A stretch of DNA of 33,665 bases from an uncultured Oscillibacter sp. (GTDB lineage Bacteria > Bacillota > Clostridia > Oscillospirales > Oscillospiraceae). Location: assembly GCA_964519775.1 (NCBI GenBank), contig CAZFJB010000001.1:1-33665 (forward strand). The letters are read 5' to 3'. The translations under genes and the position numbers were made by a program. The notes under the pieces are model-generated. The model ran no database searches and had not been told where the DNA came from. It worked only from the letters and a program-made list of their open reading frames with translations. Positions 11,436 through 29,333 of the stretch are shown here, piece after piece; the first letter of the stretch is position 1; each line of letters opens with the position of its first letter.

Positions 11436-11499
11436 AATGATCCTTCTTCCTTATAAAATTTTATTTTACAGTTTCCACTGAAAAATAACAACAGTTTTT

Positions 11500-12618: not shown

Positions 12619-12620
12619 GT

Positions 12621-14447
12621 TTAACCTCCCATTCCGCCGGTGAGATCGATATCAAAGAATTTGCTGGCGATCACATAGGTAGCCAGAACGATGATAAACA
12701 AAATGACCGTGATGACGTTGGAATACGGCTCCTGAAAGGAGTTCGTGTACTGATGGGCCAGCAGAGGCAGGTTGTAGTCCGCGGGTGTGGCTACCAGCAA
12801 AATCAGATCCAGTTCCTTGATGACGCCGATAAAGGTGACCATAAAGCTGGACATGAAGCCGCCCTTGGCCAGAGGGATGATAATGCGGACGAAACGCTTG
12901 AAAAAGCCGATGCCCTCAATTTGAGCCGCTTCTTCCAGCTCCGTGCTGATCTGCATCATGTTGGCCTGACCGGTCCTGGCGGCGAAGGGAATGTTTTTCA
13001 CCACGCTGACCAAAACGACCAGTGCAAAAGTACCGTACAGAGACGGGATAATACCATGAGACTTGGAGAACATGGTCAGGTAAATGGCGCCGAATGCCAG
13101 AGAGGGCATCAGATAGGGCACAAACACGACCTGTTCCAGCAGGATACCGCTCTTTTTGCCCCGCAGACGGGAGGTCAGATAGCCCACCAGCTGGCCGATG
13201 CAGGTAGCAAACACAGAGGTGAGAATGGTGATCTTCAGGGTGCTCCACAAAGAGCGGAAGAATCTTGGATTCAGAAGCACGCCGGGTTCGCCCTCATAAA
13301 TGTTGGGATCGCCCTTGCTGAACCAATAGTGCAGGGTGATGTTGTCCAAACTGTAGCTGCCGGGACGCAGCAGAAACGTCTCGAGGAACAGGATCACCAT
13401 GGGCATCATGGTCATCACAACGGTAAAAACGCCCAGCGCGATGGTGCAGGGGGTACGGGCGTGACCCAGCTTTGCCAGGGTGCTGCGGCCGCCCTTGCCG
13501 CCGATGGTGGCATAACTCCTGCGCTTGCCCACGGCAATGCTGTTGAGCAGCAGCGCGACAGCGGAGATAGCGATCATGACCAGGGCTACGCAGTAGCCAA
13601 CGTTCTGATATTTGGTGCCGGAGATGTAGTCCTTCATGATGACGGACAGATTCTTGAAGCCCACAGGTCCGCCCAGATAGAAGCAAATAAAGTAGCCGCC
13701 CATGGTCTTGGACAGAGTCAGGATCGTGGCGGACAGGATGGTGGGCAGCACCAGCGGCATGGTGATCTTGGTCAGGATCTTGACACGGCTGACGCCGGTG
13801 ATCTCGCCCATCTCCTCCAGCTCGCTGTTAACAGACTTCAGCGCGCCTGATACCAGAAGGAAAGAGTATGCGTAATAGTGCATGACGAACACGCAGATGA
13901 TGGGGACCACACCATAACTGAGCCACTCAGGCACCGGAATACCGATGGATTCCAGCAGACCTGAATAACCGCCCAGGCTCTTCACACGGAACACGGCGAC
14001 CCAGGCCTTTGCTTTGCACCAGCTTGGCAGCATATACGGGATCAGGATGGCCAGGTTAAAAAACTTCTTGCCGGGTATATCGGACCGGATCAGCAGCCAA
14101 GCCACCAGCGCGCCGATCAGAACACTGAAGATCGTGGAGAAAAACGCCACGGTCAGAGAGTTCATAAACGGCTTGAAGAACAGGGTCTTGCTGACATTGG
14201 AGAACAAGCAGCGATTCCAGTAATACACCGTGAAGGCGCCGGTATCCATTTTCAGCGCGGCGGATTCGCCGCGGGCTACGGAGAATGTCGTGTCGATGAT
14301 CTCCACCAGGGGATAAACCATCAGGATACCCAGAACTACCAGACACGCGATCAGCAGGATGTTCATGGGGTTCATCAGGAACCTCTTCACCACGTTGGCT
14401 GTCCGCTTGAGTCGGTATGTATTGGAGCTTCTCTGAGGCTTTAACAT
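12621..14447 (-). CDS. ABC transporter permease with two fused TM domains (AfuB/FbpB class)
   Basis: 608 aa hydrophobic protein with two EAA loops (ELEEMGEITG, ELEEAAQIEG). Confidence 0.88.
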   Translation of the reverse strand: MLKPQRSSNTYRLKRTANVVKRFLMNPMNILLIACLVVLGILMVYPLVEIIDTTFSVARGESAALKMDTGAFTVYYWNRCLFSNVSKTLFFKPFMNSLTVAFFSTIFSVLIGALVAWLLIRSDIPGKKFFNLAILIPYMLPSWCKAKAWVAVFRVKSLGGYSGLLESIGIPVPEWLSYGVVPIICVFVMHYYAYSFLLVSGALKSVNSELEEMGEITGVSRVKILTKITMPLVLPTILSATILTLSKTMGGYFICFYLGGPVGFKNLSVIMKDYISGTKYQNVGYCVALVMIAISAVALLLNSIAVGKRRSYATIGGKGGRSTLAKLGHARTPCTIALGVFTVVMTMMPMVILFLETFLLRPGSYSLDNITLHYWFSKGDPNIYEGEPGVLLNPRFFRSLWSTLKITILTSVFATCIGQLVGYLTSRLRGKKSGILLEQVVFVPYLMPSLAFGAIYLTMFSKSHGIIPSLYGTFALVVLVSVVKNIPFAARTGQANMMQISTELEEAAQIEGIGFFKRFVRIIIPLAKGGFMSSFMVTFIGVIKELDLILLVATPADYNLPLLAHQYTNSFQEPYSNVITVILFIIVLATYVIASKFFDIDLTGGMGG

Positions 14448-14499
14448 TTTCTCAACTCCTTTAACTCGTCTACCTCATTTTCTGTCAGATCCCGCGGTC

Positions 14500-15363
14500 T
14501 CAGATCCGCAATCCGTCATACGCCGCGCGGATCTGCCCGGCGTAAAGCTCATGAAGCTGGGCCTCAAGCTCTGAGTGGAGCAGCCCGCCCTTGTGCCCGA
14601 TATGGGTCACATAAATGGAGGTCTCGGCATCAATGGTCTCCTGAGCGGTCAGCTGCTCCAGTGTCTCGCGCAAAAATTCCAGATTCATATGCTGTTTGTC
14701 ACGAGACTGGGAAGCCTTGCCGAAGGTACACTCTATGATCAGCGTATCCAGCCGGAAATCCTTCAGGTACTCAAAGGCCTCTGGATAGAACAGGCCCGTG
14801 TCACAGGCATAGAACATGGTTTTGCCGTTTCGCCGGAACAGATAGTTCAAACTGTTCTCTCCCTCAAACATACCGGGATGCCGCCCATATACCGCGGATA
14901 CCATCATGTCATCCACCTGGAACTCCCTGAAGGGTTCTACCGGGATGAAGGTGCACTGTGTTGGCCACCGTTTCACAGTGACGGGGAAGTTGGTGTACGT
15001 CTGGGCGGCCAGCACTTCTCCAAGCCGCGTAAAGCCATCATATGCCGCCGGGGAAAGATAGATCTCCAGACGTGGTGCCTCTGTGATGCACATCTGCAAA
15101 TTTTCCATAGTCGCTGAATTAAAATGATCCAAATGACTGTGGGTCAGGAAGATGCGCTTCAGATTTTGCAGGGAGATCCCCTCTTTGACGCAGGCGGGCA
15201 GCACGTCCGCGCCGCAGTCAATAAGATTCTCCTCATCCAGCAGAAACGCTGTGCGATTTCGCTTTTCACGGGGATCTTTGCTGGCAAGCGCGCGTCTGCA
15301 TACATCGCATCCGCACATGGGGTTGGGGATCATTTCGGCTGCTCCGGTTCCTAAAAAGATCAT
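14500..15363 (-). CDS. MBL-fold metallo-hydrolase, PhnP-like phosphodiesterase
   Basis: FLGTGAAE.IP, CGCDVC structural Zn motif, THSHLDH, YACDTG, THIGH, AYDGLRI. Confidence 0.8.
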   Translation of the reverse strand: MIFLGTGAAEMIPNPMCGCDVCRRALASKDPREKRNRTAFLLDEENLIDCGADVLPACVKEGISLQNLKRIFLTHSHLDHFNSATMENLQMCITEAPRLEIYLSPAAYDGFTRLGEVLAAQTYTNFPVTVKRWPTQCTFIPVEPFREFQVDDMMVSAVYGRHPGMFEGENSLNYLFRRNGKTMFYACDTGLFYPEAFEYLKDFRLDTLIIECTFGKASQSRDKQHMNLEFLRETLEQLTAQETIDAETSIYVTHIGHKGGLLHSELEAQLHELYAGQIRAAYDGLRI

Positions 15364-15405
15364 GTGACATCACCACACACGTTAAATTCATGTTAGCATA
15401 CTATC

Positions 15406-15434
15406 ATGATACAATGAAATAAGTTTTATTTCAA
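15406..15434 (-). promoter_or_regulatory. sigmaA promoter of the PhnP-like/ABC operon with overlapping palindromic operator
   Basis: Minus strand TTGAAA-17bp-TATCAT; palindrome TGAAATAA-gtt-TTATTTCA at 15415-15433. Confidence 0.65.
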
Positions 15435-15513
15435 TACTTAATTATGCAATAAAATTTCTTTTCGCTTTTGTGCATATTGTACCCAACTTTTGATTTCCTT
15501 TTTTTGGATTGTA

Positions 15514-15522
15514 TGGTATGAT
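15514..15522 (+). promoter_or_regulatory. Extended -10 promoter of the RpiR gene
   Basis: TG-G-TATGAT about 40 nt upstream of the TTG start. Confidence 0.45.
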
Positions 15523-15559
15523 GTGAAAAATGTTTCTTGTGTTCGGGAGGTGCTTTATT

Positions 15560-16399
15560 TTGGAAAAGAATCCCCTGCTGATCATGCAGACGCAGTATGA
15601 GTCTTTTTCTAAGGTCGGTCAGAAGATCGCCACATATATTATGGAGGACCCAAACCGCGCCATCAACAACAGCATCCAGCAGATGGCCAAGGATCTCTCT
15701 GTCTCTGAAGCCAGCATCGTCCGCTTCAGCCGCGCGATCGGCTTGTCCGGCTTCAGCGATCTGCGGATCCAGTTGGTGAAGCACACAGTCGCCTCTCCGC
15801 TCCCTTCCTTTTTTGAGGAGATCAAGGATGATGACTCCATGGAATCCGTCGCGCAGAATGTGTTCATCCGCAATATTTCCACTCTGCAGACAGCCATGCA
15901 GCAGATCGACTTCTCCACCATCAGTGCCGCGGCGGAGCTGATCCGTGATGCCAAGCGCATCGTCGTCTGCGGTATGGGTACCTCCGCTGGTGTGGCGGAG
16001 AGCCTCTATGTTCGTCTGTTCCGTGTGAGTATGCCCGCGATCCTGGAGACAGACCCGGAATTTATGCAGATCGCCGCCCGGATGGCAGAGCCGGGGACCG
16101 TCTTTGTAGGCATCTCCCGCAACGGCCGCACCACAGCCGTGGTAAAGGCTTTTGAGGAGGCCCAGCGAAACGGGGCCAAGACCATCAGCATCACAACCCA
16201 GACGCAGACCCCGTTGGATCGTGCCTCTGATATCTCGATCATCCATTACGCACCCACGGCGGTCATGGTCTCCACCCGTATCGTGCAGAACACCATCATT
16301 GACTGTCTATATATCTGCGCGACCCGGCACCACCAGCAGGATGTGCTGAATCAGATCGCGGAGAACCGCCGGGTGGCGGAGTTCCTGCGGATGAAATAA
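15560..16399 (+). CDS. MurR/RpiR family transcriptional regulator (HTH + SIS)
   Basis: SVSEASIVRFSRAIGLSGFSDL, CGMGTS, GISRNGRT; TTG start after GGAGGTG. Confidence 0.9.
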   Translation: MEKNPLLIMQTQYESFSKVGQKIATYIMEDPNRAINNSIQQMAKDLSVSEASIVRFSRAIGLSGFSDLRIQLVKHTVASPLPSFFEEIKDDDSMESVAQNVFIRNISTLQTAMQQIDFSTISAAAELIRDAKRIVVCGMGTSAGVAESLYVRLFRVSMPAILETDPEFMQIAARMAEPGTVFVGISRNGRTTAVVKAFEEAQRNGAKTISITTQTQTPLDRASDISIIHYAPTAVMVSTRIVQNTIIDCLYICATRHHQQDVLNQIAENRRVAEFLRMK

Positions 16400-16555: not shown

Positions 16556-16593
16556 AAAAAGGGAGGACAGGCATAAGCCTGTCCTCCCTTTTT
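16556..16593. terminator. Bidirectional intrinsic terminator
   Basis: AAAAAGGGAGGACAGGC-ataa-GCCTGTCCTCCCTTTTT between convergent genes. Confidence 0.9.
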
Positions 16594-16681: not shown

Positions 16682-17620
16682 TTACTTCTTGCCGAGCGTC
16701 TGGAGCTGCTTCATCGAGCCGTACAGCTCGACCATGTGGGCGAACTCGGCCTCGTCGTAGAATTTAAACTCGCCGCGGCCGTAAGACTTAGCAGCCTCGA
16801 GCACGAAGCGCGCGGCCTCCTCCACATCGGCAAAGTGACTGCACCCGGTCGCGCAGCCGGGGACCATGGTTTCGGTTGTGATGGCAACGCCGACAACGGG
16901 CGCGTCGGTGCAGGTGCAGGGCTGCATGATGCTGTTGATATGGTGGACATCATTGCCGTAAGGAGTGATATCCTGCATATTGACGGGGAAGACATAGGGG
17001 AGCTTGCCGGTCGTGCGCTGCATAATGTCCAGCAGGCCTTCGCTCGCGCGCAGGATATAGCCTTCCTTGACGGGCTGGGAGATCGCGAAGCCGCGGGTGT
17101 TGATCACACGGTTGCCCTTGGTCGTATCGATGGAGAAGATGGCGTCCAGCTCCGGCGAGACCTCCTCCTGGTTGACCTGATAGATCTCCACCGGCGAGCC
17201 CATGAAGGGGACGGGATCATGCGGCTTGGTCGGCGCGTCCGGGCAGATGTGAGTGGAGATGAAGATGTCACCGGGCAGCACATCGCCCTTGTTTTTCATG
17301 TCGAGCAGCTTCGCGGCGATGGCGAGCGCGGCAAGCGCGCCGTCACCATCGGAAACATAGCCGATCATTTCAGGCCGCGCGCCGAGACCGCCGAGACGGC
17401 CGAGAATGCCGAGCGTCGGGACGGGGCCGCCGGAGGACTTGCCGTTCGAGCCGGGAATGCGGACCTTGAGCATATGCGTGGTCCCGCGCGGACCGGTGAG
17501 CGGATAGGTCTCGACATTGGCTTCGGGGTCGATGTTTTTGAGGAAATCAACGACCGCCTGGCCGTCTACCTGACCGTTGTCGAGAAGTTCATAGACATCA
17601 ATGATTTGTTTGAGCAGCAT
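16682..17620 (-). CDS. DUF1177 family protein
   Basis: PTLGILGRLGGLGARP, VSDGDGA, THICPDAPT.PH.PV.FM, SIDTTKGNR, QDITPYGN..HHINSIMQP, VPGCATG. Confidence 0.85.
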   Translation of the reverse strand: MLLKQIIDVYELLDNGQVDGQAVVDFLKNIDPEANVETYPLTGPRGTTHMLKVRIPGSNGKSSGGPVPTLGILGRLGGLGARPEMIGYVSDGDGALAALAIAAKLLDMKNKGDVLPGDIFISTHICPDAPTKPHDPVPFMGSPVEIYQVNQEEVSPELDAIFSIDTTKGNRVINTRGFAISQPVKEGYILRASEGLLDIMQRTTGKLPYVFPVNMQDITPYGNDVHHINSIMQPCTCTDAPVVGVAITTETMVPGCATGCSHFADVEEAARFVLEAAKSYGRGEFKFYDEAEFAHMVELYGSMKQLQTLGKK

Positions 17621-17722
17621 GATAATACCTTCCTTTCATTCTTTTAAGCTTCTGCGCAGATATGCTCTTTGTGAAATGCGGGGAACGATCGACCGGGGAG
17701 AGGCGCGCTTGCTTCCGATAGA

Positions 17723-18664
17723 TCAGATCCTGAATTCGCCCTTCTCCATGATGAGCTGATCGTCCAGATACAGTGTGGGATTTTTGATGATGCCGTCCAT
17801 GTGGCAGTCGGCCTTGTTCGTGCCGCCAAAGCCATTGTTGGTGCCAAAGGCGATGTGCACGGTGTGATATGCTTTCTCGTCCTCAAGGATCACGCCGATG
17901 AGCTTCGCGGCGTAGTTCGTGCCGATGCCGAGCTCACAGAGAGTGCGGTTGTTGTCGTTTCGAAGCAGGATGGAGAGCTTGTCGGCGTCGGGGCCGTCGA
18001 TACTTTGCAGCTTTCCATTTTCGACCCTGACCGTGAGCGGCTCACGCAGCAGTCCAACGCCGACCATGCTGCCGTCGATGACCATGGAGCCGTTGGAACC
18101 GTCCTCCAGCGGAGCGATGTAAGCCTCACCGGAGGGGAGATTGCCCGATTGCCCTTTCTCCCGGTAGACGCCGGGGCTGGGGATACCGGGGCGGCCGTTC
18201 AGGTCGAGCGTGAGGACATGACCGTTCTTTTCGATCCGTGCTGTCTTTGCCTGAGTGAGAAGCTCTGTCACACGGTTCGTCAGATCCATGACGGTGGAAT
18301 AGTCCGCTGTCATGGCACCCTGGCGGAACATGGATTCCGTGATGCCGGGCATGGTGGCAACACGCGCGCCGGCTTTTACCGCGGCCTTTTTGGCATTTGT
18401 ATGGGTGATGGAGGTGCTCATCGGGCAAAGAATAACATCTGCAGCCGCCATCGCGGCGGCGATCGCGGCAGGGGGCTCCTGACCGGAGACCTCGCGCGGC
18501 CGCATCGTCACCAACAGCGCGTCTGCGCCAAGCTCCTTGGCGGCCTCGTAGAGTGCCTCGCCGATGGGATACTTCTCATCGTCCGTGATCACAAGAACGC
18601 TTTCGCCTGCCTTTACATCCATACAGGTGGTCAGTACGGATTTTCCAATCTCTACCAGATTCAT
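17723..18664 (-). CDS. M29-like (aminopeptidase T type) metallohydrolase
   Basis: GARVATMPG, GNLPSGEAYIAP, ELGIGTN, ILEDEK...TVHIAFG, CHMD. Confidence 0.8.
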   Translation of the reverse strand: MNLVEIGKSVLTTCMDVKAGESVLVITDDEKYPIGEALYEAAKELGADALLVTMRPREVSGQEPPAAIAAAMAAADVILCPMSTSITHTNAKKAAVKAGARVATMPGITESMFRQGAMTADYSTVMDLTNRVTELLTQAKTARIEKNGHVLTLDLNGRPGIPSPGVYREKGQSGNLPSGEAYIAPLEDGSNGSMVIDGSMVGVGLLREPLTVRVENGKLQSIDGPDADKLSILLRNDNNRTLCELGIGTNYAAKLIGVILEDEKAYHTVHIAFGTNNGFGGTNKADCHMDGIIKNPTLYLDDQLIMEKGEFRI

Positions 18665-18702
18665 GGATCCACGCCTTCTTTCTTCAATTTGTTTTGTTTG
18701 GT

Positions 18703-19371
18703 TCAGGCCAGTAATTCCATCACAACGCGCGCGGCAATGGTGCGCGAGAGGATAACAGGCTTTCCCGTGCGCTCACGCACATAGTCCTTCATAGCCGCCG
18801 TATAGCCGATGCAGTCAAGCACCACAAGGTCAGCCGACGAACCGGCGATGCGCTCACAGGCAAGCTCCAGCTCTTTGGGGTCGCCGTAGGGGGAGGCGGG
18901 GACGACCAGCACGCTGTCGACATAGTTCTGCCATTTCTCCGCACACTGCGCTTCCTGCTCCGGTGTCGGAGTCACGACCGCGATGCTGGAATGGTTGGAA
19001 AGCGCGGGGACGATCCCGTTGAGAACCTGGCAGGGGAAGACCAGCGGAACATGGCTCAGGAACGAGGGAAAACTGCCGGTGCAGAGAAACAGGATCAGCT
19101 CCGCGCCCTGCTCTTCCAGAAGGTCGATGCAGTTTTGAAGGCGCGGGAGGATAAACTTTTCGGCAAAGACAGCGGAACTTCCGTCACGGAGACGGGAGAT
19201 GAGCACATAGTCCCCGGGAGCGGGGGCGAATGCCGCGATGTCCTGCGCCGTCAGGCCATCCAGCGCGCCGGCCTGCAAAAGCGTGACGTCCGGGGAGAAG
19301 AGCGGACCGATGTCTGCAATGACATCGGCGCGAGGACTTTGCCCGATGGTGATCAATCCGATTTTTTTCAT
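18703..19371 (-). CDS. aroM: AroM family protein
   Basis: ITIGQSPR.DV, GALDGL, LISRLRDG, LCTGSFP, ASPY, VLDCIGYT; RBS AAGGAGG. Confidence 0.85.
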   Translation of the reverse strand: MKKIGLITIGQSPRADVIADIGPLFSPDVTLLQAGALDGLTAQDIAAFAPAPGDYVLISRLRDGSSAVFAEKFILPRLQNCIDLLEEQGAELILFLCTGSFPSFLSHVPLVFPCQVLNGIVPALSNHSSIAVVTPTPEQEAQCAEKWQNYVDSVLVVPASPYGDPKELELACERIAGSSADLVVLDCIGYTAAMKDYVRERTGKPVILSRTIAARVVMELLA

Positions 19372-19465
19372 GCTAACGATCCTCCTTCTGAAAAATGGCT
19401 ATATGCCGCGGTATACAGAAGCTGTTAAAAGACTGAACGGCTCTGCCCTGAATGTTGGATGGGGC

Positions 19466-19494
19466 TTTACAAAACGGGCTGAGTGCGTTAGACT
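19466..19494 (+). promoter_or_regulatory. Putative sigmaA promoter of the IclR gene
   Basis: TTTACA-17bp-TAGACT. Confidence 0.5.
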
Positions 19495-19553
19495 GACAGA
19501 GTATCAAGATAACGAGGTGATAGGGTAGATCGATTCGAATCAGGAGGTGGGCC

Positions 19554-20306
19554 ATGAAACATGAGCCAGACGCAAGCTACATGCAGACCGCAGGGCGCGC
19601 GCTGGATGTCCTGAACTGCTTTATGAAAGGGGAACCGCTGTCTCTCACCGCCATCGCTAAGCGAACGGGACTGAGCCCATCGGTGACATTTCGATTACTC
19701 TATACGCTGATGGAGCATGGCTTCGTGAAGCAGCTTCGGGGGAGCAAGCTCTATTTCATCGGCGATCGGGCGGTCCTCCTCGGCCTGACCGGCATGAACG
19801 GACAGAAGATCGTTCGGGTCGGATACGACCTGATCTGGGATTGGGCACGGCAAACGGGCCACAGCATTATCATCTCCGCGCCGTTTGACAATCGGGCGGT
19901 GGTGGTCGCGCGGATCAACACGCTGAAGGACGACCGGGATATGACATACACGGGCCGCTCGGCACCGCTGCATCTGGGGGCCTCACAGCGCATCCTCCTG
20001 GCCTATATGCCGGAGGATGCGAGGAACGCCTATGTGGACTCCCTCTTCATTGAGCGCTCGGCAAAGGCCGCGATGCTTCAGGAGTTGGACGCCATTCGGG
20101 CACGTGGCTATGACTACACGGAGGGAATGCTGACAAAGGGCGTGTGGGCCCTCGCGCTGCCGATCTTCAACATCTCCCGCGAGATCGCGGGGGGAGTTTG
20201 CACGAGCGGGGTGATCGGCGAGACGGGCAGAGAAGAGATCGAAGAATGTCTGGCGCAGCTCCGCCAGCTGCAAACGCTTTTGCAGGAAAAAATGGATACG
20301 GAGTAA
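19554..20306 (+). CDS. IclR family transcriptional regulator
   Basis: RALDVL..LSLTAIAKRTGLSPSVTFRLLYTL HTH; PLHLGAS.RILLAY; ELDAIRARGY; ALALPIF; RBS AGGAGG. Confidence 0.9.
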   Translation: MKHEPDASYMQTAGRALDVLNCFMKGEPLSLTAIAKRTGLSPSVTFRLLYTLMEHGFVKQLRGSKLYFIGDRAVLLGLTGMNGQKIVRVGYDLIWDWARQTGHSIIISAPFDNRAVVVARINTLKDDRDMTYTGRSAPLHLGASQRILLAYMPEDARNAYVDSLFIERSAKAAMLQELDAIRARGYDYTEGMLTKGVWALALPIFNISREIAGGVCTSGVIGETGREEIEECLAQLRQLQTLLQEKMDTE

Positions 20307-20315
20307 AACTTTTAC

Positions 20316-20349
20316 AGCCTGCCGCAGTGATCTGCGGCGGGCTTTTTTT
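20316..20349 (+). terminator. Intrinsic terminator of the IclR gene (U-tract on plus strand only)
   Basis: AGCCTGCCGCAG-tgat-CTGCGGCGGGCT followed by TTTTTT. Confidence 0.8.
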
Positions 20350-20567
20350 CCGTGTGGCGGGGTGAGATCTGTCTGCCTTTTCCGAAGGATCGACCGACGG
20401 CGGAAAATTTTTTCATATCGATAAATACGCACAAATCGTGGAAATGAAATCGCTTTTCCACATATCGAAAAAATGATTTCTTATTCCGGAATAAATGCAT
20501 ATAAAAACCAACGCGCACTGTAAAAGATGGATAAAGCACAGCGGCATATTAAACTTTTTTCGAGGAG

Positions 20568-20596
20568 ATTCTACTATATTTTTGCGCAAGAGTCAA
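20568..20596 (-). promoter_or_regulatory. Leftward sigmaA promoter, back-to-back with the OPT promoter
   Basis: Minus strand TTGACT-17bp-TAGAAT. Confidence 0.55.
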
Positions 20597-20600
20597 GATA

Positions 20601-20629
20601 TTGACATTTTTCATAAGCTAACCTATAAT
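20601..20629 (+). promoter_or_regulatory. Consensus sigmaA promoter of the OPT-DUF917 operon
   Basis: TTGACA-17bp-TATAAT; inverted repeat CATTTTC-N9-GAAAATG just downstream (20640-20662). Confidence 0.85.
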
Positions 20630-20745
20630 GTGCGTGTAACATTTTCTTGTGTGCGGAAAATGCGTATTATTCGCTCGCTTGTCCCGAATCTGCATATCCC
20701 CAAAGTGAAAACCGGGCGACGGGCAGAGAACAAGGAGGAGACCCA

Positions 20746-22425
20746 ATGGACAATGAGAAAAAGACCCAGGATCTGGAGCAGTTGAATATTACTGCCGCGG
20801 AACATCCGAAACTGTGGGAGCCCGGGCTGCTGGTGCTGAACGTGCTGATGTGCGTTCTCGGCTGCATCATCGGCCTTGAACTGATCGCGAATACGGGCAC
20901 CACACCGAACACCTCTCTGGTCGGCGCGCTCATCGCGATCATCATTTCCCGTATCCCGATCGCAAAGTTTTCGAAGCTGCGCAGCGTCCACCGTCAGAAT
21001 CTGATCCAGACTTCCATCTCCGGCGCCACCTTCTCGATCGCCAACTGTATGTTCCTTACGGTCGGCGTGCCGCTGCTGATGGGGCGGAACGATCTGATGA
21101 TCCCCATGCTCATCGGCGTCACGCTGGCGACTGCCATCGACGCCACGATCCTCTACAAGTGCTTTGATACGCCGATGTTCCCCGCCGAAGGCGCATGGCC
21201 TCCGGGTGTCGCTACCGCGGAGACGCTCCTCGCGGTCGTCCGTAAGGGCAAGCGCGCGCTGCTCCTGCTCGTTGGTATGGGCATGGGCATTGTCGGTAAA
21301 GCGATCGGCCTTCCGATGGATCTCCTTGGTGTTTCCTGGTTCGGCAACTTTGCCGCCATGATGGGTCTCGGTATCGGCAGCCTTGTGATCGGCATTGTGA
21401 AGACGAACAGCATCGGCTTTACGCTCTTCGGCCACAGCTTCACCTTTGTCTCCGAACTGTTCGGCGCCGGTTTCGACAGCGGCTCCCTGGCGGTCACCTA
21501 CCTCGGCCACGGCCTGATGATCGGTGCCGGCATGGTCTCCCTGTATCAGGCGGCCCGTATGCTGATGAAGAAGGACGACGAAAATTCCTCCGCGGTCTCC
21601 CGCTTCACCTCCAGCATGAAGGATATGCGCAACGCGATGGGCTGGGGCTATGTCGCTTACGCGGCCGTGGCGCTTGGCATTGCCATCGTCAGCGGCTTCC
21701 TCTATGAGATGAGCATCGGTATGTTCATTCTCTGGGTGCTGTTTGCCGCGGTCGCCGCGCTCGTTTCCGAGATCATGGTCGGTATCGCCGCCATGCATTC
21801 CGGCTGGTTCCCCGGCTTTGCCACGGCCTTCGTGTTCCTGATCATCGGTATGCTGATCGGTTTCCCGTCGCTGCCTCTCGGCATTCTGGTCGCCTACACG
21901 GCTGCGACCGGCCCGTGCTTCTCCGATATGGGCTATGACCTGAAGACCGGCTACATCCTCCGCGGCTGCGGCAAGGACAAGGAACTGGAGCTGTTTGGCC
22001 GCAAGCAGCAGTGGTATGCGGAGTTGCTCGGCTTTGCCGTCGCGTTTGTCATGATGCTCATCTTCGCCAACAACTACTTCGGCCAGGACATTTTCGCGCC
22101 GGTTTCGAGAACCTATGTTTCCACCATCGCTGCCGGCACGACGCCGGAGATCGCCAAGTGGCTGCTGATCTGGGCGGTGCCGGGCGCGATCATTCAGCTC
22201 GCCTTTGGCCACAGACAGGTCGGTATCCTCTTTGCCACCGGTATCCTGGTCGGCAATACGCTCAATGGCCTTACCATTATCCTCGCGCTGCTCCTGCGCT
22301 ACATCCTTGAAAAGAGAAATGAGGAGAATCGCCAGATCCTCACCATCCTCGGCGCCGGCGCGCTGGCAGGCTCTGCGCTCTACAGCTTCTTCACTGCAAC
22401 GCTCGGCCTTGCGAAGAAAAAATAA
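20746..22425 (+). CDS. OPT/YSL family oligopeptide-type transporter
   Basis: Polytopic hydrophobic protein; RQNLIQTSISGATF, WPPGVATAE, AAMHSGWFPGFA, DMGYDLKTG; RBS AAGGAGG before ATG 20746. Confidence 0.82.
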   Translation: MDNEKKTQDLEQLNITAAEHPKLWEPGLLVLNVLMCVLGCIIGLELIANTGTTPNTSLVGALIAIIISRIPIAKFSKLRSVHRQNLIQTSISGATFSIANCMFLTVGVPLLMGRNDLMIPMLIGVTLATAIDATILYKCFDTPMFPAEGAWPPGVATAETLLAVVRKGKRALLLLVGMGMGIVGKAIGLPMDLLGVSWFGNFAAMMGLGIGSLVIGIVKTNSIGFTLFGHSFTFVSELFGAGFDSGSLAVTYLGHGLMIGAGMVSLYQAARMLMKKDDENSSAVSRFTSSMKDMRNAMGWGYVAYAAVALGIAIVSGFLYEMSIGMFILWVLFAAVAALVSEIMVGIAAMHSGWFPGFATAFVFLIIGMLIGFPSLPLGILVAYTAATGPCFSDMGYDLKTGYILRGCGKDKELELFGRKQQWYAELLGFAVAFVMMLIFANNYFGQDIFAPVSRTYVSTIAAGTTPEIAKWLLIWAVPGAIIQLAFGHRQVGILFATGILVGNTLNGLTIILALLLRYILEKRNEENRQILTILGAGALAGSALYSFFTATLGLAKKK

Positions 22426-22452
22426 GTTAGTAAACAAAGCCGTTTAGTACCA

Positions 22453-22512
22453 GCCGTGGGCGTCCGGGCGGGAACTGCAGCCCCTGCCGTTTCCGTCCCG
22501 GGCGCTTACGGT
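22453..22512 (+). other. Long intercistronic stem-loop between the OPT and DUF917 genes
   Basis: CCGTGGGCGTCCGGG pairs with CCCGGGCGCTTACGG (G-U pairs allowed), with further inner pairing; no U-tract. Confidence 0.5.
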
Positions 22513-22562
22513 CTGATGTGGGAAAAATGGGAATCATTTTTCGAACGAAGGAGGAACATGAT

Positions 22563-23672
22563 ATGAGCATCATTCTCACCAAAGGAGATGCGGAAAAGAT
22601 TTTGAGCGGCAGCCTCTTCCTCGGCTGCGGCGGAGGCGGAGACGATGCTGTCGGAAAGAGCATCATCGAAAAGGCGGTGCCGAAGGGCGTGGAACTGGTC
22701 TCGCTGGACGAGGTGCCGCGGGAGGGATTGTTCCTCACGATCTCCCCGGTCGGCTCTCCGGCCTCGACCGAGAGCCACTGCGATGACGATACCTATGCAA
22801 GGATCATCACGCTGTTCAAGCAAAAACAGAAGGAAGATCCGCGTGTCCCTCAGGGGGAGGTCGTGGGCCTGCTTCCGTGTGAGATCGGCGCGCTTTCCTC
22901 CTTCTGCCCCATGATGACGGCTTCGCTTTGCGGCATCCCCGTGGTGGACGCGGCCTGCGACGGCCGCGCGCATCCGTTCGGCTCCATGGGCTCGCTCGGC
23001 CTTGAAAAGCGCGGCGGCGTTGTTGTTCAGGTCTGCGCGGGTGGAAAGCGGGAAAAGAATTACTATGTGGAAGCGAGTGTGATCGCCTCCGTGGATGCCG
23101 CGGCGAACATCATTCGCACCAGCGCGGCAAATGCCGGTGGAATGGTCGCGGTCGCGCGCAACCCGATCGACTATGCGTGGATGAAGAAGACAGCGGCTCC
23201 CGGCGCATACTCTTTTGCGCGGTGCATTGGTGAGAGCTTTGCGCGGGAGGGGAGCGTCACGCAGAAGCTTCAGGCTGTCTGCGATACCATTGGCGGACAG
23301 ATCGTTGCCCAGGGCGTTGTCGGCGACATTCTGATCGAGACGAAAAATGCCCTTGACTACGGCCGCTTTACGATCACGACCGATGCGGGCGAAGTCTACA
23401 CGATGACATTCTGCAATGAGTATATGTCGATGGACGGTCCGGACGGCGAGAGAAAGTTCACCTTCCCTGATTTTATGGCTACCTGTGCGGCGGAGGACGG
23501 CAAGCCCGTCTCCACGGCCAGACTCAAAAAGGGAGACCGCGTCTTCCTGCTTGGATCGAGCAGACACAATATGCGCCTTGGACAAGGACTGCGCAATCGC
23601 GCGCCCTACCTGCGGCTGGAGGACGCGCTTGGCATTGAAATGCTGCGCTATGTCGGCGATATCATTGAATGA
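22563..23672 (+). CDS. DUF917 family protein (thiohydantoin desulfurase-like)
   Basis: GSLFLGCGGGG, SPVGSP, PCEIGA, IPVVDAACDGRAHP, VARNP, NEYM, FPD; RBS AAGGAGG. Confidence 0.8.
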   Translation: MSIILTKGDAEKILSGSLFLGCGGGGDDAVGKSIIEKAVPKGVELVSLDEVPREGLFLTISPVGSPASTESHCDDDTYARIITLFKQKQKEDPRVPQGEVVGLLPCEIGALSSFCPMMTASLCGIPVVDAACDGRAHPFGSMGSLGLEKRGGVVVQVCAGGKREKNYYVEASVIASVDAAANIIRTSAANAGGMVAVARNPIDYAWMKKTAAPGAYSFARCIGESFAREGSVTQKLQAVCDTIGGQIVAQGVVGDILIETKNALDYGRFTITTDAGEVYTMTFCNEYMSMDGPDGERKFTFPDFMATCAAEDGKPVSTARLKKGDRVFLLGSSRHNMRLGQGLRNRAPYLRLEDALGIEMLRYVGDIIE

Positions 23673-23678
23673 ATGAAC

Positions 23679-23726
23679 GCGGCCCATGCTTCAAACTTCT
23701 TATTGGAGCATGGGCTGCTTTTTGTT
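23679..23726 (+). terminator. Intrinsic terminator after DUF917
   Basis: GCGGCCCATGCTTCAA...TTGGAGCATGGGCTGC followed by TTTTTGTT. Confidence 0.75.
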
Positions 23727-23803: not shown

Positions 23804-23832
23804 TTGACATTTTTTTCGCGGCGTTGTAAACT
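23804..23832 (+). promoter_or_regulatory. sigmaA promoter of the MerR gene
   Basis: TTGACA-17bp-TAAACT. Confidence 0.7.
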
Positions 23833-23864
23833 TGAGAAAAGATCCGGGAAGAGGGGGAGCAGTT

Positions 23865-24650
23865 ATGTATCTGACTGCCAACGAAATATCCAAGGCACTG
23901 AACATGACCACGGAGGCCATTCGACACTATGCCCGCGAGGGGCTTGTGACTCCGCACCGCAATGAGAACAACGGCTATTGGGAATACTCCTCTGAGGATC
24001 TGCTGCGGTTGACGGACATCCTTTTTTACCGCAGTATGTCGCTGACTATACCAGAGATCAAGGCCATCATGGTGGATGAAATGCCGCTGGAGGACATCCA
24101 GCAGGTCATTGAGCGGCGCATAAGCGCGCTGATCGCCGAGATCCGAGAAAAGATGGATACGCTGGGGGAGCTGCAGCGGTGGAGCGAACTGCATATGGAG
24201 GAGATGCGGAGCCTGGGTACATTTCGCACAGGACCGATGCCGCCAAGCTATCGCTGCCGGGGCTGCTATGACAGCAGCCGTCATATGGCGGAGTATCTTC
24301 GCAGCAATTTTGACTTTGAGCGTGGGAACTGGATGGATATGTCCCTCTCATTCTCCTATGACCGCAATGACCCCCAGCCCCACATGGAGCGCTATCTCTC
24401 CTTCAGCGGTTCTGTGCGGCTGAAGCCCTCCAATATGCATGGGGACCTGATCGAAGAGCAGGAGCCGCGCTGCCTGATCACGGAGACGTATTACAGTGAT
24501 GATCCCATGGAAATGCTCCAGCCGATGCTGGACTATGCCGCCGCCAACGGCATCCGTCTGAGCGGAAAATTCTACGGTCATGAGAATACCAATTACTTTG
24601 CCGGCGGAAAACGGAAGGCGATCTACTGCATATATGCCGTGATCGAATAA
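23865..24650 (+). CDS. MerR family transcriptional activator with C-terminal effector (GyrI-like) domain
   Basis: EISKALNMTTEAIRHYAREGLVTPHRNENNGYWEYS, YRSMSLTIPEIK, coiled coil, C-terminal MLDYAAANGIRLSG typical of BmrR-like proteins. Confidence 0.85.
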   Translation: MYLTANEISKALNMTTEAIRHYAREGLVTPHRNENNGYWEYSSEDLLRLTDILFYRSMSLTIPEIKAIMVDEMPLEDIQQVIERRISALIAEIREKMDTLGELQRWSELHMEEMRSLGTFRTGPMPPSYRCRGCYDSSRHMAEYLRSNFDFERGNWMDMSLSFSYDRNDPQPHMERYLSFSGSVRLKPSNMHGDLIEEQEPRCLITETYYSDDPMEMLQPMLDYAAANGIRLSGKFYGHENTNYFAGGKRKAIYCIYAVIE

Positions 24651-24669
24651 AATTTTATAAAAAAAGGTA

Positions 24670-24700
24670 TTGACCTCGGGGTTACCCCGAGGTTTATACT
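24670..24700 (+). promoter_or_regulatory. MerR-type promoter with dyad operator
   Basis: TTGACC-19bp-TATACT containing perfect 10-bp arms ACCTCGGGGT-t-ACCCCGAGGT (24673-24693), directly after the MerR gene. Confidence 0.9.
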
Positions 24701-24774
24701 TTTCGTGTGAAATGCATAATTATCCGTTTTTTAAAACTGGTTATGCAGATTGCGCCAGGAAAGAAGGAATATCT

Positions 24775-25725
24775 ATGCTGAAACCAAAGCTGCTTGCTCC
24801 CGGTGCGACCATCGGTATCGTCGCGCCTGCAAGCCCCGCCGAGTCTCCGTCGGAGCTGCCGCGGGCCAGAGCGTATCTTGAGGAGCTGGGCTTCCGTGTG
24901 GTCATCGCGCCACACGTTGACCTGCGAAAGGGCTTTGTCGCCGCATCGGAGACTGAGCGTGCCGCCGACATCAACGCGATGTTCGCGGAACCTGCCATTG
25001 ATGCCGTGTGCTGCGCCCGCGGCGGCTACGGAAGCGCACAGATCATCCGACATCTGGATTTTGACCTGATCCGACGAAATCCCAAGATCTTCACCGGCTT
25101 TTCCGACATCACGTCCTTGCACCTTGCCATCAACCGGCTGGCAGGGGTGGTGACCTTCCACGGACCGGGTATCGCCCGCTTCAATCCGGAGGAGCTGAGT
25201 GACTATACGAAAAAGCAGTTCTTCAAGGCGCTGACCACCACCGCGCCTTTGGGGGACATTCCTTTGAGCGATTCGAAGAAATGGCTGCACACCATTGTCG
25301 GCGGCGCGGCGGAGGGGGAGCTGATCGGCGGCAATCTGACGCTGCTGTGCGCAAGCCTGGGCACACCGTTCCAGCCGGACACCCGGGGAAAGGTGCTTTT
25401 GCTGGAGGATATAGACACCGAGCCGTGGATGATGGACCACAATATGAGCCATTTGCGCAATGCCGGTGTGCTGGACGGCGTGGCCGCCGTGGTCATCGGG
25501 GAATGTAAGGGCTGCGTTCCCTACGACTATAAACCCGGTTTTCTTTCGGACGTTACGGTGGAAGAGGTGTTTGAATACTACCTGAAGCCACTGAATATAC
25601 CGACGCTGTACGGCCTGCCCCTGGGACACACCGGGGATCTTGCCACGCTGCCGTTGGGCGTGCGGGTGCGGCTGGACGCGACGGAAAAGCGCCTCACCGT
25701 GCTGGAGAGCGGTGTAACGGAGTGA
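24775..25725 (+). CDS. S66 family peptidase (LD-carboxypeptidase/MccF-like)
   Basis: IGIVAPAS, ERAADIN, RGGYGS, GFSDITSL (Ser), GGNLTLL, LLLED (Glu), PLGH (His). Confidence 0.9.
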   Translation: MLKPKLLAPGATIGIVAPASPAESPSELPRARAYLEELGFRVVIAPHVDLRKGFVAASETERAADINAMFAEPAIDAVCCARGGYGSAQIIRHLDFDLIRRNPKIFTGFSDITSLHLAINRLAGVVTFHGPGIARFNPEELSDYTKKQFFKALTTTAPLGDIPLSDSKKWLHTIVGGAAEGELIGGNLTLLCASLGTPFQPDTRGKVLLLEDIDTEPWMMDHNMSHLRNAGVLDGVAAVVIGECKGCVPYDYKPGFLSDVTVEEVFEYYLKPLNIPTLYGLPLGHTGDLATLPLGVRVRLDATEKRLTVLESGVTE

Positions 25726-25774
25726 GCGCCCGCGAAAAAGAGAATATTTACCTGATATAAAAGGAGGAATCCCC

Positions 25775-27364
25775 ATGAAAAAGATCTCTGCAATGGTATT
25801 GACCATACTGCTGGTGCTGGGCGTATGCGCCGGCTGCGGCGGCAGCGGTGAGAGTGGAACGGTCGATGACGAGGTCATCTTCAAGGTCGCCATCAACAGC
25901 GGCTACGATACGCTCAACCCCTTCACCACCGAGTCCAGCATGGTCTATGATTTCCTGAACTTCTGCTATGACTCGCTGATCGCCTATGATGACGATTTCA
26001 ACGCCGTCCCGCGCCTTGCGGAGAGCTGGTCCTGCAGCGATGACGGCCTTGACTGGACCTTCAATCTGCGCCACGATGCCGTCTTCTCCGACGGCGAGGC
26101 CGTTACCTCCGCTGATGTGAAGTGGACATACGAAAACGTGATCGACAGCTATATGTACTCCACGCACGCAAGCGGCTTTGCCGACATCGAGTGTCCCGAT
26201 GACTATACCGTCATCTTCCACTGTGAGGCCCCGAAGCCCGATATGCTCTATCAGATCATTCCCATCCTGCCCGAGCACATCTGGAGCGGTGTGGATGACA
26301 TCTTCTCCTATGAGCCGGACACGCTCGTCGGCTCCGGCCCGTTTATCTACGATGCCGAGCGCAGCATCAACGGCAATGTCGCCTTTGTCCGCAACGACAG
26401 CTATTGGGGGGATAAGCCCTATGTCGATGTGCTGGTCTTTACCCTGTACGATAATTACGACACCATGGCGCAGGCCATGCAGTTGGGCGAGGTGGATGCC
26501 TGCTATGAGCTGGATCGCACGCAGTACGATAAGCTCAGCAGCGATCCCGGCTTCTATGTGGAGCTTTATGAGGGCTTCAGCGAGGAGCACCTTGCCTACA
26601 ACCTGATGAACGAGGTCACAGGTGATCCGGTCATCCGCTATGCCATCGACTATTGCTTTGACCGTGAGAACGCGGTGGAGATGGGCTACGGCGGCCTTGC
26701 CGAGGTCGGCTACGGCATCATCAACAATCCCGGCTACAAGTATGCGCCCCCGACCGACATCTTCCGTGAGCTGAGTACCGACAAGGCCAACGCCCTGCTG
26801 GATGAGGCCGGCTATCTCGATACCGATGGTGACGGCATCCGTGAGCGCAACGGCGAACCCCTCAGCCTTGAGCTTATCACTGCCTCCGAGCGCAGCTCCT
26901 GGCAGTCCGCCGTGGTGAACATGATGATCACCAACTGCGCCAAGGCCGGCATTGAGATCAAGTGGTCAACGCTTGAGAAGGTCACGATGTGGGATACCTG
27001 CTGCGACGGCAATCCCGACTGGCAGCTCTATCTTGATGGCTGGGGCGGCGACGCTGACCCGGGCATGATCCTCTGCCTCTTCCAGGATTGGGAGACTCTG
27101 GGCTACTCCACTACAAGCTATTCAAATCCCGATTTCGACGCGGCCTATGACATCGTCCTCACCACCGTCGATCCCGACGAACGGGCCGCCGCCATCGAGG
27201 AGTGCCAGCGCATTCTCTATGTCGATTCCCCCTATACGGTCATCTGCTATGATCTCAGCGTACAGGCCATCTCCAGGAACTGGACGGGCTATGCCACGAA
27301 CGGCGTGGGCCTCTTCGGCAACGAGCGTATCGACACCTATGTCCATGTAAAGCCAGCGGAATAA
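25775..27364 (+). CDS. Peptide/nickel ABC substrate-binding lipoprotein (family 5, OppA/DppA-like)
   Basis: Lipobox CAGC, PRLAESW..SDDGLDWTFNLR...FSDG..VTSADVKWT, VGSGPF, DTDGDGIRE. Confidence 0.9.
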   Translation: MKKISAMVLTILLVLGVCAGCGGSGESGTVDDEVIFKVAINSGYDTLNPFTTESSMVYDFLNFCYDSLIAYDDDFNAVPRLAESWSCSDDGLDWTFNLRHDAVFSDGEAVTSADVKWTYENVIDSYMYSTHASGFADIECPDDYTVIFHCEAPKPDMLYQIIPILPEHIWSGVDDIFSYEPDTLVGSGPFIYDAERSINGNVAFVRNDSYWGDKPYVDVLVFTLYDNYDTMAQAMQLGEVDACYELDRTQYDKLSSDPGFYVELYEGFSEEHLAYNLMNEVTGDPVIRYAIDYCFDRENAVEMGYGGLAEVGYGIINNPGYKYAPPTDIFRELSTDKANALLDEAGYLDTDGDGIRERNGEPLSLELITASERSSWQSAVVNMMITNCAKAGIEIKWSTLEKVTMWDTCCDGNPDWQLYLDGWGGDADPGMILCLFQDWETLGYSTTSYSNPDFDAAYDIVLTTVDPDERAAAIEECQRILYVDSPYTVICYDLSVQAISRNWTGYATNGVGLFGNERIDTYVHVKPAE

Positions 27365-27380
27365 CGCCGAATACCGATAG

Positions 27381-27412
27381 ACGGGGTGCGCCGCAGCCGC
27401 GGCACACCCCGT
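27381..27412 (+). other. Stem-loop after the binding-protein gene
   Basis: ACGGGGTGCGCCGC-agcc-GCGGCACACCCCGT (one mismatch), no U-tract. Confidence 0.55.
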
Positions 27413-27442
27413 TGCCTAAATGTTACCCGGAGGTGCAAAAAA

Positions 27443-28411
27443 TTGACCAAGCGGATCCTCAAAAAACTCTTTTTCGCCCTCGTTACCATTCTTTTCGTGG
27501 TGGCGTTCAACTTTTTCCTTTTCCGCGTGATGCCCGGAAACGCGGAGACCATCATTGCCAAAAGTACCACCTCACAGGCGGTGAAGGACCGTCTGATCGC
27601 CGAGGCGGGGCTGGATCAGCCCCTTATGACGCAGTTTGCTATCTATATGCGCGGCCTGCTCACCGGCGACTTCGGCAACGCCTTCAATACCTATGACGGC
27701 AAGCAGAACGTGCTCGCCATCATTGCCGGCCGCATCCCCAACACGGTCATTCTCCTCATTGCGGCAGAACTGATCGCTATTGTGCTGGGACTTTTCGTGG
27801 GCGTGATCTGCGCGTGGAAGCGGGGCACGGCGGTGGATACCGGTCTGCTCTCCGGATCGTTGGTGCTGTACTCCATGCCGACCTTCTGGTTCGCCATGGT
27901 GCTGATCTTCGTCTTTTGCGTGGGACTTCGGTGGTTCCCCACCGGCGGCATCACCACTGCCGGCACCCACTATGTCGGCTGGCGCTATGTGCGGGACTAT
28001 CTGCGCCACATGATCCTGCCGATGCTGTGCATGGGCGTTTTAATGCTGGGAAGCTACGCCATCCTGATGCGCAGCACCATGATCGATGTGTTGACCGAGG
28101 ACTACATCACCACCGCCCGGGCCAAAGGCTTTTCTCCGCGCTATATCCTTCTCAAACACGCGATGCCAAACGCCATGCTGCCGATGATCACCGTCATTGC
28201 CATGAACCTTTCCATGGTGGTGGGCGGCGCGATCCAACTGGAAACGCTCTTTTCGTGGCAGGGGTTGGGAAAACTCATGTACGAAGCGCTGATCCGGCGT
28301 GACTATCCGCTCTTGCAGGGCTGCTTCGTTATCACGACTGTCGCGGTGGTGGCGACGAATTTCGTTACCGACAGTCTGTATGCCCTGATCGACCCCCGGG
28401 TCAAAAACTGA
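27443..28411 (+). CDS. Peptide ABC permease (OppB/DppB-like)
   Basis: GLDQPL..QF, MPTFW, DYITTARAKG, RDYPLLQG, LIDPRVK; TTG start after GGAGGTG. Confidence 0.88.
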   Translation: MTKRILKKLFFALVTILFVVAFNFFLFRVMPGNAETIIAKSTTSQAVKDRLIAEAGLDQPLMTQFAIYMRGLLTGDFGNAFNTYDGKQNVLAIIAGRIPNTVILLIAAELIAIVLGLFVGVICAWKRGTAVDTGLLSGSLVLYSMPTFWFAMVLIFVFCVGLRWFPTGGITTAGTHYVGWRYVRDYLRHMILPMLCMGVLMLGSYAILMRSTMIDVLTEDYITTARAKGFSPRYILLKHAMPNAMLPMITVIAMNLSMVVGGAIQLETLFSWQGLGKLMYEALIRRDYPLLQGCFVITTVAVVATNFVTDSLYALIDPRVKN

Positions 28412-28428
28412 AAGGAGGCGCAGAGAAG

Positions 28429-29328: not shown

Positions 29329-29333
29329 GGGCC

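Follow-up and report, generated by a model that had tools for sequence, protein, structure and literature searches.

What compound do six neighboring genes of an uncultured Oscillibacter sp. import and break down? The genes lie at positions 16,682 to 23,672 of a 33,665-nucleotide stretch (the window; contig CAZFJB010000001.1, here C1, of the 70%-complete genome GCA_964519775.1) and encode an OPT-family transporter, a DUF917 protein, an AroM-family protein, an M29-like metalloenzyme, a DUF1177 protein, and an IclR-family regulator. An earlier reading made from the letters alone (the sequence-only reading) had listed six intact genes of these families, and all six open reading frames (ORFs) are indeed open. 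Profile matches agree for DUF1177 (E 2.5e-131), Peptidase_M29 (E 1.9e-8), AroM (E 5.8e-81), OPT (E 7e-22), the N and C domains of S-Me-THD, formerly DUF917 (E of about 1e-21), and the helix-turn-helix and C-terminal domains of IclR. The window cluster is a reduced variant of a conserved catabolic module. We tentatively favor the view, at somewhat below an even chance, that the module takes up small peptide scraps closed into rings and breaks them down, cyclic dipeptides (2,5-diketopiperazines) being the most likely ones.

The gene set recurs across bacteria and archaea

DUF1177 was sought in 301 genomes drawn evenly from the phylum and in 14 control genomes. It was present in 38 of the 301 (source genome included) and in two controls, both archaea. 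Haloferax volcanii and Sulfolobus acidocaldarius each have matches to DUF1177 as well as DUF917. Neighborhoods of up to 20 kb around DUF1177 were collected as 38 stretches from 37 other genomes, and a second set comprised the best 80 of at least 541 GTDB matches, a sample biased to close relatives; both sets together give 118 loci (labeled L; proteins are labeled P). Neighbor counts are lower bounds, as some stretches stop at contig ends, and no count here is a statistical test because related genomes are not independent.

The even sample held PucR-type regulators in 22 loci, a PF01177 racemase in 21, AroM in 16, DUF917 in 14, M29-like in 13, and OPT in 11. Among the best 80 GTDB loci the numbers were AroM 55, DUF917 40, M29-like 39, racemase 35, PucR 35, and OPT 33. 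OPT, DUF917, DUF1177, AroM, and the M29-like gene occurred together in 9/38 even-sample loci and 27/80 of the best GTDB loci, most commonly in the order PucR, OPT, DUF917, DUF1177, AroM, M29-like, racemase. The module recurs in Thermococci, Synergistota, Bacilli, one halophile, and enterobacteria, with variant plasmid copies in Klebsiella, Sodalis, Paenibacillus, Salinigranum, Planococcus, and Streptomyces. Thus the co-occurrence that the sequence-only reading had proposed as a check is widespread, since the gene set recurs across the sampled loci; in the window the same five genes are clustered with a regulator. Among near kin DUF1177 is patchy, found in 2/24 genomes of the genus and 2/150 of the family at 55 to 60% identity.

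The importer varies between loci. OPT occurs in 44 of the 118, a family-5 peptide-binding protein in 29, and NCS1 in 4. DUF917 accompanies OPT in 11/11 loci of the even sample and 31/33 of the best 80 (42/44 overall), whereas versions with only an ABC importer have it in 0/10 and 2/17 (2/27 overall); M20 peptidases occur in 12 of those 17. On the plasmids of Klebsiella and Sodalis, a PepE gene stands in for the M29-like gene, and the Streptomyces copy has an M20 peptidase and no DUF1177 in the stretch examined.

Several loci show other arrangements. On the conjugative Klebsiella plasmid NZ_CP057460.1 (L199), an IclR-OPT-DUF1177-AroM-PepE-racemase cassette lies between insertion sequences, a context showing that the module can be mobile. 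A 281-aa family without a Pfam or NCBIfam match (f17) lies inside 16 of the 118 DUF1177 clusters (e.g., L031:6155-7000) and is fused to AroM in L143. In five genomes (L043, L051, L052, L055, and L056) a lone DUF1177 gene sits inside a conserved block whose ORFs resemble what we take to be ribosomal-protein, trmD, RNase H, and hflX genes. DUF1177 adjoins an aldehyde:ferredoxin oxidoreductase and a branched-chain amino-acid ABC transporter in L062 to L064, a possible link to amino-acid fermentation. The loci that combine NCS1, a racemase, and a carbon-nitrogen hydrolase (L121, L169, L170, L184, and L185) carry PucR and an M29-like gene in most cases and neither OPT nor DUF917; DUF1177 is broken in L184.

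Two genes of the closest relatives are missing from the window

The system had been called complete, which did not hold: two genes found at the same places in the closest relatives are missing here. There, the M29-like gene and DUF1177 flank a PF01177 racemase gene, and IclR and OPT flank a second DUF917 gene. The racemase is present in 34/36 other loci with all five nonregulatory genes (9/9 plus 25/27). In a metagenome set of 36 loci, 12 had a DUF1177 protein of at least 87% identity; the racemase stood directly before DUF1177 in 10, and the other 2 end too early. From the M29-like gene to the next aligned block L149 has 662 bases and the window 62, and the OPT-iclR gap measures about 1,430 bases in L149, where it holds the second DUF917, versus about 440 in the window. 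When the ORFs of the relatives were searched against the window by tblastn, no trace of either missing gene came up (best E 0.4), and the best match to the cluster racemase in the 70%-complete window genome was only 27% identical.

Assembly error does not account for the short form: contigs of sequencing run X1 bridge both places, and those of X3, a run of a different study, bridge the place of the racemase. Run X1 may represent the source sample. When four runs were mapped on the fuller relative L166 there was no cover over the racemase or inner DUF917, an absence that proves nothing. The simplest reading would be a loss of both genes in this lineage. Weighing on that reading, L161 to L163 (71 to 74% identity) also lack the inner DUF917. 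Other loci without the racemase are L089, L114, and L162 to L164. RNA run X16 contained pieces of a 92 to 97% similar cluster, a weak hint of expression, as DNA can be present in such a run.

The closest relatives carry two or three copies of DUF917. In a tree of 74 rows, from which proteins of less than 320 aa were left out, the window DUF917 is the orthologue of the outer paralogue in L150 and L166 (support 100/99) and sits on a long branch (0.81). Its identity to the relatives' orthologues is 51 to 52%, compared with 88% for OPT and 92% for DUF1177. Two DUF917 paralogues from different subclades occur in the close relatives L149, L150, L166, L155, L158, L159, and L069, and a second AroM gene follows the outer DUF917 in L150 and L166. 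Duplication of DUF917 and AroM in these L149-type relatives suggests tuning of substrate range.

Predicted folds and active sites of the enzymes

The sequence-only reading expected AroM to racemize and the M29-like and DUF1177 proteins to hydrolyze. AroM has what appears to be a two-cysteine racemase dyad: C97 and C187 are kept in 64/64 homologues and align with the cysteines of 2eq5. The relation is distant (AroM profile versus 2eq5, E 2e-4), and a sequence search of the PDB with the single AroM protein gave nothing useful. AroM is likely an epimerase. In P0272 and P0273 AroM is fused to a GntR DNA-binding domain, with both cysteines present in P0272. The racemase of related clusters matches 2eq5, annotated "hypothetical hydantoin racemase," best in the PDB (E 3.5e-63) and OpaE second best (E 3e-11). 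OpaE is a two-cysteine enzyme in the family of Asp/Glu racemases and epimerizes peptide ring scaffolds (PMC12661438), and NozR, of the same family and also with two cysteines, is a diketopiperazine D/L isomerase (PMC10156859).

Both putative hydrolases, as anticipated, have metallo-hydrolase folds. By sequence profile the M29-like protein matches NicX (E 2e-24), PepS (E 1e-10), and AmpT (E 1e-6). Its metal ligands E180 (51/57), E244 (52/57), E263 (57/57), H270 (52/57), H288 (57/57), and D290 (57/57) align with the AmpT and PepS motifs, giving a two-metal ligand set. The NicX dioxygenase has other residues at four of these six Glu/Glu/Glu/His/His/Asp places, and because of this ligand pattern we rejected a dioxygenase role like that of NicX. 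M29 aminopeptidases have a catalytic tyrosine after the HIAFG motif. No Tyr is among the commonest residues at positions 277 to 280, just before which the printed alignment stops. The protein is likely an aminopeptidase or amidase.

The DUF1177 model is confident (predicted local distance difference test score, 93.8) and matches 1rtq (Z 17.4; root mean square deviation 3.2; 237 residues aligned; Foldseek E 4e-8), as well as 5ds0 and 5gne, all with a zinc-exopeptidase fold. Invariant in 116 full-length homologues are R75, S90, D93, H134, D165, N170, D217, H227, N229, and S230; D91 (115/116) and H124 (113/116) are nearly so. Cocatalytic zinc exopeptidases of the M28, M42, and M20 families use the ligand set His, Asp, Glu-Glu, Asp/Glu, His. 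When the secondary structure was set by eye against these motifs, two of the five usual ligands fit (D91 and D165), with R75 at the place of the expected His and C126-P127 at that of Glu-Glu. This mapping stays by-eye because hhalign of DUF1177 against eight M20 proteins gave no match (probability, 0.55%). A PDB search with the DUF1177 profile gave at best a short chance match to glutamate racemase (E 0.045), an ESM Atlas search with a DUF1177 homologue returned DUF1177 clusters only, and complex prediction for DUF1177 and AroM scored 0.00, which is no evidence either way.

DUF1177 also occurs in fusions. P0123 and P0271 are DUF1177-AroM fusions. P0160 and P0180 are 733-aa PucR-type regulators fused to a C-terminal DUF1177 without H124 and D165, a loss expected of a sensor copy; here the enzyme domain looks like one reused as a ligand sensor. 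At least three of the PucR-DUF1177, DUF1177-AroM, and GntR-AroM fusions rest on single records.

The window DUF917 keeps the invariant residues of its family (GGGG, E, GRAxP, NE, and PD motifs). Its predicted fold matches only 2o3i (Z 32.9; next rows Z of 3.5 or less), and the single protein searched against the PDB by sequence gave nothing useful (E 0.2). Thiohydantoin desulfurases of this family act in ergothioneine catabolism. Against the desulfurase models the window protein scores 220.9 of 440 bits (NF058529) and 199 of 450 (NF058532), below the cutoffs, and none of the 301 genomes has a DUF917 protein at the desulfurase cutoff.

A cyclic dipeptide as the tentative substrate, and its rivals

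In the reading we favor, OPT would take up the compound, DUF917 would hydrolyze a ring amide, AroM would invert a D-center by two-cysteine proton transfer, and the M29-like and DUF1177 proteins would cut the linear product to amino acids, with IclR sensing the substrate or an intermediate. This lineage would have lost the two missing genes and been left with a narrower substrate range. Importers are of the peptide type in most loci, and the partners swapped in are peptidases (PepE, M20). A further pointer comes from cyclodipeptide oxidases (CDOs), the characterized members of which act on cyclic dipeptides (bioRxiv 10.1101/2023.09.25.559410). Andreas and Giessen, in the part of their paper used here, report DUF917, AroM, hydantoin racemase, OPT, and peptidases as enriched around CDOs not linked to cyclodipeptide synthases (non-CDPS CDOs), name the anaerobes Blautia, Clostridium, and Thermococcus, and suggest hydantoinase activity for DUF917 (10.1101/2023.09.25.559410, PMC11055893). 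In the related DUF1177 loci the CDO-B family PF19585 stands next to a nitroreductase in 5/5 loci tested (two by ORF listing, three by coordinates). All 8 of the 301 genomes with PF19585 have a DUF917 match (base rate, 60/301). Together, importers, swapped peptidases, CDO pairs, and the epimerase precedents favor cyclic-dipeptide salvage, and the gene neighborhoods speak more for a peptide ring than for a compound with sulfur. Degradation of diketopiperazines by bacteria is known and was inducible in one strain, and the peptidases tested did not degrade them (PMC3852281, consulted in part). No paper naming a ring-opening cyclic-dipeptide hydrolase gene was found in the literature searched. The statement of the sequence-only reading that the gene set has no assigned function stands in that none was found in that literature, with few subscription journals covered, but the gene set is partly listed by Andreas and Giessen.

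Several findings weigh against a cyclic dipeptide, all evidence for which is guilt by association. The small nitroreductase family occurs in only 11/118 DUF1177 loci; of the 8 genomes with PF19585, only 2 have a DUF1177 match and 6 have none; and the window genome has no PF19585 and the window no CDO pair, although the same profile was found in five other genomes. For the DUF917 family the activity on record is desulfuration and not the opening of an amide ring, and with the desulfurase models the clade of the window DUF917 scores 221 to 331 bits (10 proteins) and a hydantoinase-linked clade at 73 to 109 (7 proteins). DUF1177 in its model appears to be without the usual two-metal ligand set, so its peptidase role is not secure. 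The Klebsiella and Sodalis OPT copies have no DUF917 in the stretches examined, and five DUF1177 loci (L121, L169, L170, L184, and L185) combine an NCS1 permease, a racemase, and a carbon-nitrogen hydrolase in a hydantoin-pathway layout.

These last loci fit better with a substrate that is an amino-acid- or peptide-derived hydantoin, thiohydantoin, or N-carbamoyl form. In that case DUF917 would act on the five-membered ring by desulfurization or opening, racemization at C5 would fall to AroM and the racemase, and the amino acid would be released by the hydrolases. We consider this somewhat unlikely. In its favor, this DUF917 clade scores much higher with the desulfurase hidden Markov models than other DUF917 proteins do, and DUF1177 is also present in 17/20 genomes whose DUF917 reaches at least 220 bits (G000 included). 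The best PDB match of the cluster racemase, the PucR-type regulators in 57/118 loci, the occurrence of hydantoinase or oxoprolinase neighbors besides the NCS1 and carbon-nitrogen hydrolase variants, and the hydantoinase activity proposed in the CDO paper (10.1101/2023.09.25.559410) also agree with it. Yet no DUF917 reaches the desulfurase cutoff, the importers are mostly peptide transporters rather than NCS1, the six genes include no carbamoylase-type or classical hydantoinase gene, and CDO pairs and PepE, an aspartyl dipeptidase, point to dipeptides. A linear damaged peptide beyond the reach of ordinary peptidases (with a D-residue, isoaspartyl, or succinimide), epimerized by AroM and the racemase and cleaved by DUF1177 and the M29-like protein with DUF917 as an accessory, is unlikely, even though DUF1177 with AroM (71/118) and/or the racemase (56/118) is the most recurrent core, DUF1177-AroM fusions exist, the ABC and enterobacterial versions are mostly without DUF917, and PepE takes the place of the M29-like gene in two copies. 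DUF917 does not look accessory, because it is near-constant with OPT and multiplied in the closest relatives, and CDO pairs fit a ring substrate better.

That the cluster is decaying, with no working pathway left after the loss of the racemase and one DUF917, we hold to be very improbable. Six open frames with conserved residues kept, the recurrence of the short form in runs of two studies, and changes relative to a 92 to 95% relative in run X16 that fall mostly at three-base spacing in DUF1177 stand against the two genes missing relative to close kin, an orphan promoter (Table 1), the long and divergent DUF917 branch, and the patchy distribution in kin; the few other loci without the racemase likewise speak against decay. 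A role in ergothioneine or methyl-ergothioneine breakdown, with lyase and hydratase encoded elsewhere, is hardly credible: the earlier reading's remark that the window has no ergothionase or urocanase homolog extends to the 70%-complete genome, where no PF00221 or PF01175 match was found and controls were detected. No lyase or urocanase was among the recurrent neighbor families scanned, and the DUF917 score is half the cutoff. What speaks for this role is the resemblance of DUF917 to the desulfurase models and the incompleteness of the genome.

Returning to cyclic dipeptides, a wider version of that reading is possible but doubtful. In it the module would be the missing cyclic-dipeptide catabolic pathway of bacteria and archaea; this DUF917 clade would open the ring as a cyclodipeptide hydrolase and would have given rise to the ergothioneine desulfurases; AroM would be a new peptide epimerase family and DUF1177 a new peptidase class, with a rebuilt active site on a zinc-exopeptidase fold; and duplication and loss of DUF917 and the racemase would tune which cyclic dipeptides a gut microbe eats.

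Layout of the locus and flanking genes

The grouping of the genes given by the sequence-only reading was right in that the six genes are real, but they form three separate units rather than one. Unit 1, on the minus strand, holds aroM, the M29-like gene, and DUF1177; unit 2, on the plus strand, is iclR alone with its own terminator; and unit 3, also plus, is OPT-DUF917 behind a sigma-70 consensus matching at 12/12 positions (Table 1). Likely starts of unit 3 are ATG 20746 (OPT) and ATG 22563 (DUF917), with AGGAGG ahead of each. Both boundary hairpins, claimed earlier as terminators, are present and fold far better than shuffles (0/200 shuffles as good). Rfam gave two weak matches only, on a terminator hairpin and far below thresholds, and the GC content of the cluster is similar to that of the remainder of the window.

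Table 1. Features of the six-gene locus, with window coordinates
Feature	Position	Strand	Basis or remark
Bidirectional intrinsic-terminator-like hairpin, DUF1177/convergent RpiR gene	16556..16593	both	A/T-tailed both sides, z -9.2 and -9.5
DUF1177 protein, 312 aa; predicted zinc-exopeptidase (M28/M42/M20/M17-type) fold, noncanonical active site; likely amide or dipeptide hydrolase	16682..17620	-	profile, model
62-base spacer; about 660 bases with PF01177 racemase gene in close relatives; no remnant	17660..17721	-	bridged by contigs of runs X1, X3
Short M29/NicX-fold metalloenzyme, 313 aa; E180, E244, E263, H270, H288, D290 kept; likely aminopeptidase or amidase	17723..18664	-	profile, alignment
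AroM family protein, 222 aa; racemase-type cysteine pair C97/C187; likely epimerase	18703..19371	-	profile, alignment
IclR-family regulator, 250 aa	19554..20306	+	HTH and C-terminal domain matches
Terminator-like hairpin after iclR	20316..20343	+	z -5.5
Palindromic operator-like site TTTTCCG-N5-CGGAAAA, 2 mismatches; candidate IclR site	20454..20472	.	same place in L149, L158, L161; weak
Promoter-like element (10/12) facing start place of relatives' second DUF917 gene, missing here	20568..20596	-	sequence
Perfect sigma-70 consensus promoter before OPT; second operator-like site 20642-20660 follows	20601..20629	+	sequence
OPT-family transporter, 559 aa	20746..22425	+	profile E 7e-22
DUF917/S-Me-THD-like protein, 369 aa; fast-evolving paralogue; likely acts on cyclic amide	22563..23672	+	profile, tree
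Terminator-like hairpin closing OPT-DUF917 unit	23679..23718	+	z -7.9

The operator assignment at 20454-20472 is weak, with 33 operator-like sites in the genome. The motif was derived from the window, L149, and L158, so L161 is the sole independent check; L069 and L076 have no clear match at the expected place, and the motif count in the window is not above shuffles (11/100). Likewise, the promoter count across the window is near chance (9 versus 5.1 +/- 2.8). The window retains the shared promoter and operator-like stretch, and the ribosome site and start that follow in the relatives are absent.

Downstream, positions 23832-32535 (+) carry a MerR regulator, an S66 peptidase, an Opp-type ABC transporter, and a PepV-like M20 dipeptidase, which together form a separate block for taking up and cleaving peptides. 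On the other side (10233-16399), an RpiR regulator is divergent from a PhnP-like metallo-beta-lactamase (MBL)-fold hydrolase and an ABC transporter whose permease is fused, and a GDPD-like gene comes next (7858-8757); these likely serve phosphoester or phosphonate use. The S66-Opp-M20 and RpiR-MBL-ABC flanks were ruled out as module parts, being distant from or absent in related loci. A 259-aa sulfatase-like ORF at 893-1672 (+) matches only the C-terminal part of its family and may be truncated or frameshifted.

Significance and comparison with known systems

Cyclic dipeptides are abundant and resist ordinary peptidases. The module offers named candidates for ring opening, and its role would assign functions to DUF1177, AroM, and most of DUF917, three families that have none so far; among the genera with DUF1177 are common gut ones, Blautia for example. 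What is new is the reduced variant, the gene set itself being partly in print without a function in the part consulted (10.1101/2023.09.25.559410). The window copy, a natural deletion variant, suggests that the range of substrates is widened by the racemase and the extra DUF917, neither of which would be essential. Full copies in culturable hosts are better test objects than this reduced copy in an incomplete genome. L075 and L076, from Blautia, exemplify a full cluster.

By analogy, the module would work like a hydantoin-type pathway of import, racemization, and hydrolysis; as tested, it falls outside the hydantoin, desulfurase, and CDO systems. Hydantoin utilization (hyu) loci comprise a permease, a racemase, a hydantoinase, and a carbamoylase. 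The hyu pathway, as far as described in the part of PMC3852281 consulted, has the same logic of import, racemization, ring opening, and amide hydrolysis, and a racemase fold in common. The window differs by a peptide-type importer and by having no hydantoinase, carbamoylase, or NCS1 among its six genes; of the pathway's racemases, it has a candidate cysteine pair in AroM, and the PF01177 gene is missing from this copy. The thiohydantoin desulfurases (NF058529, NF058532) have family and fold in common with the window DUF917, whose clade is the closer of the two scored; the differences are a score at half the cutoff and a genome in which no lyase or hydratase was found. Compared with the M29 aminopeptidases AmpT, AmpS, and PepS, the window protein is about 100 residues shorter. 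The non-CDPS CDO neighborhoods have DUF917, AroM, OPT, and peptidases as common neighbors, and CDO pairs were confirmed in related DUF1177 loci; the section consulted gives no substrate and no DUF1177, and the window is without a CDO pair or racemase orthologue. Although NozR and OpaE are biosynthetic and AroM is only distantly related to their family, they show the two-cysteine Asp/Glu-racemase fold acting on peptide rings.

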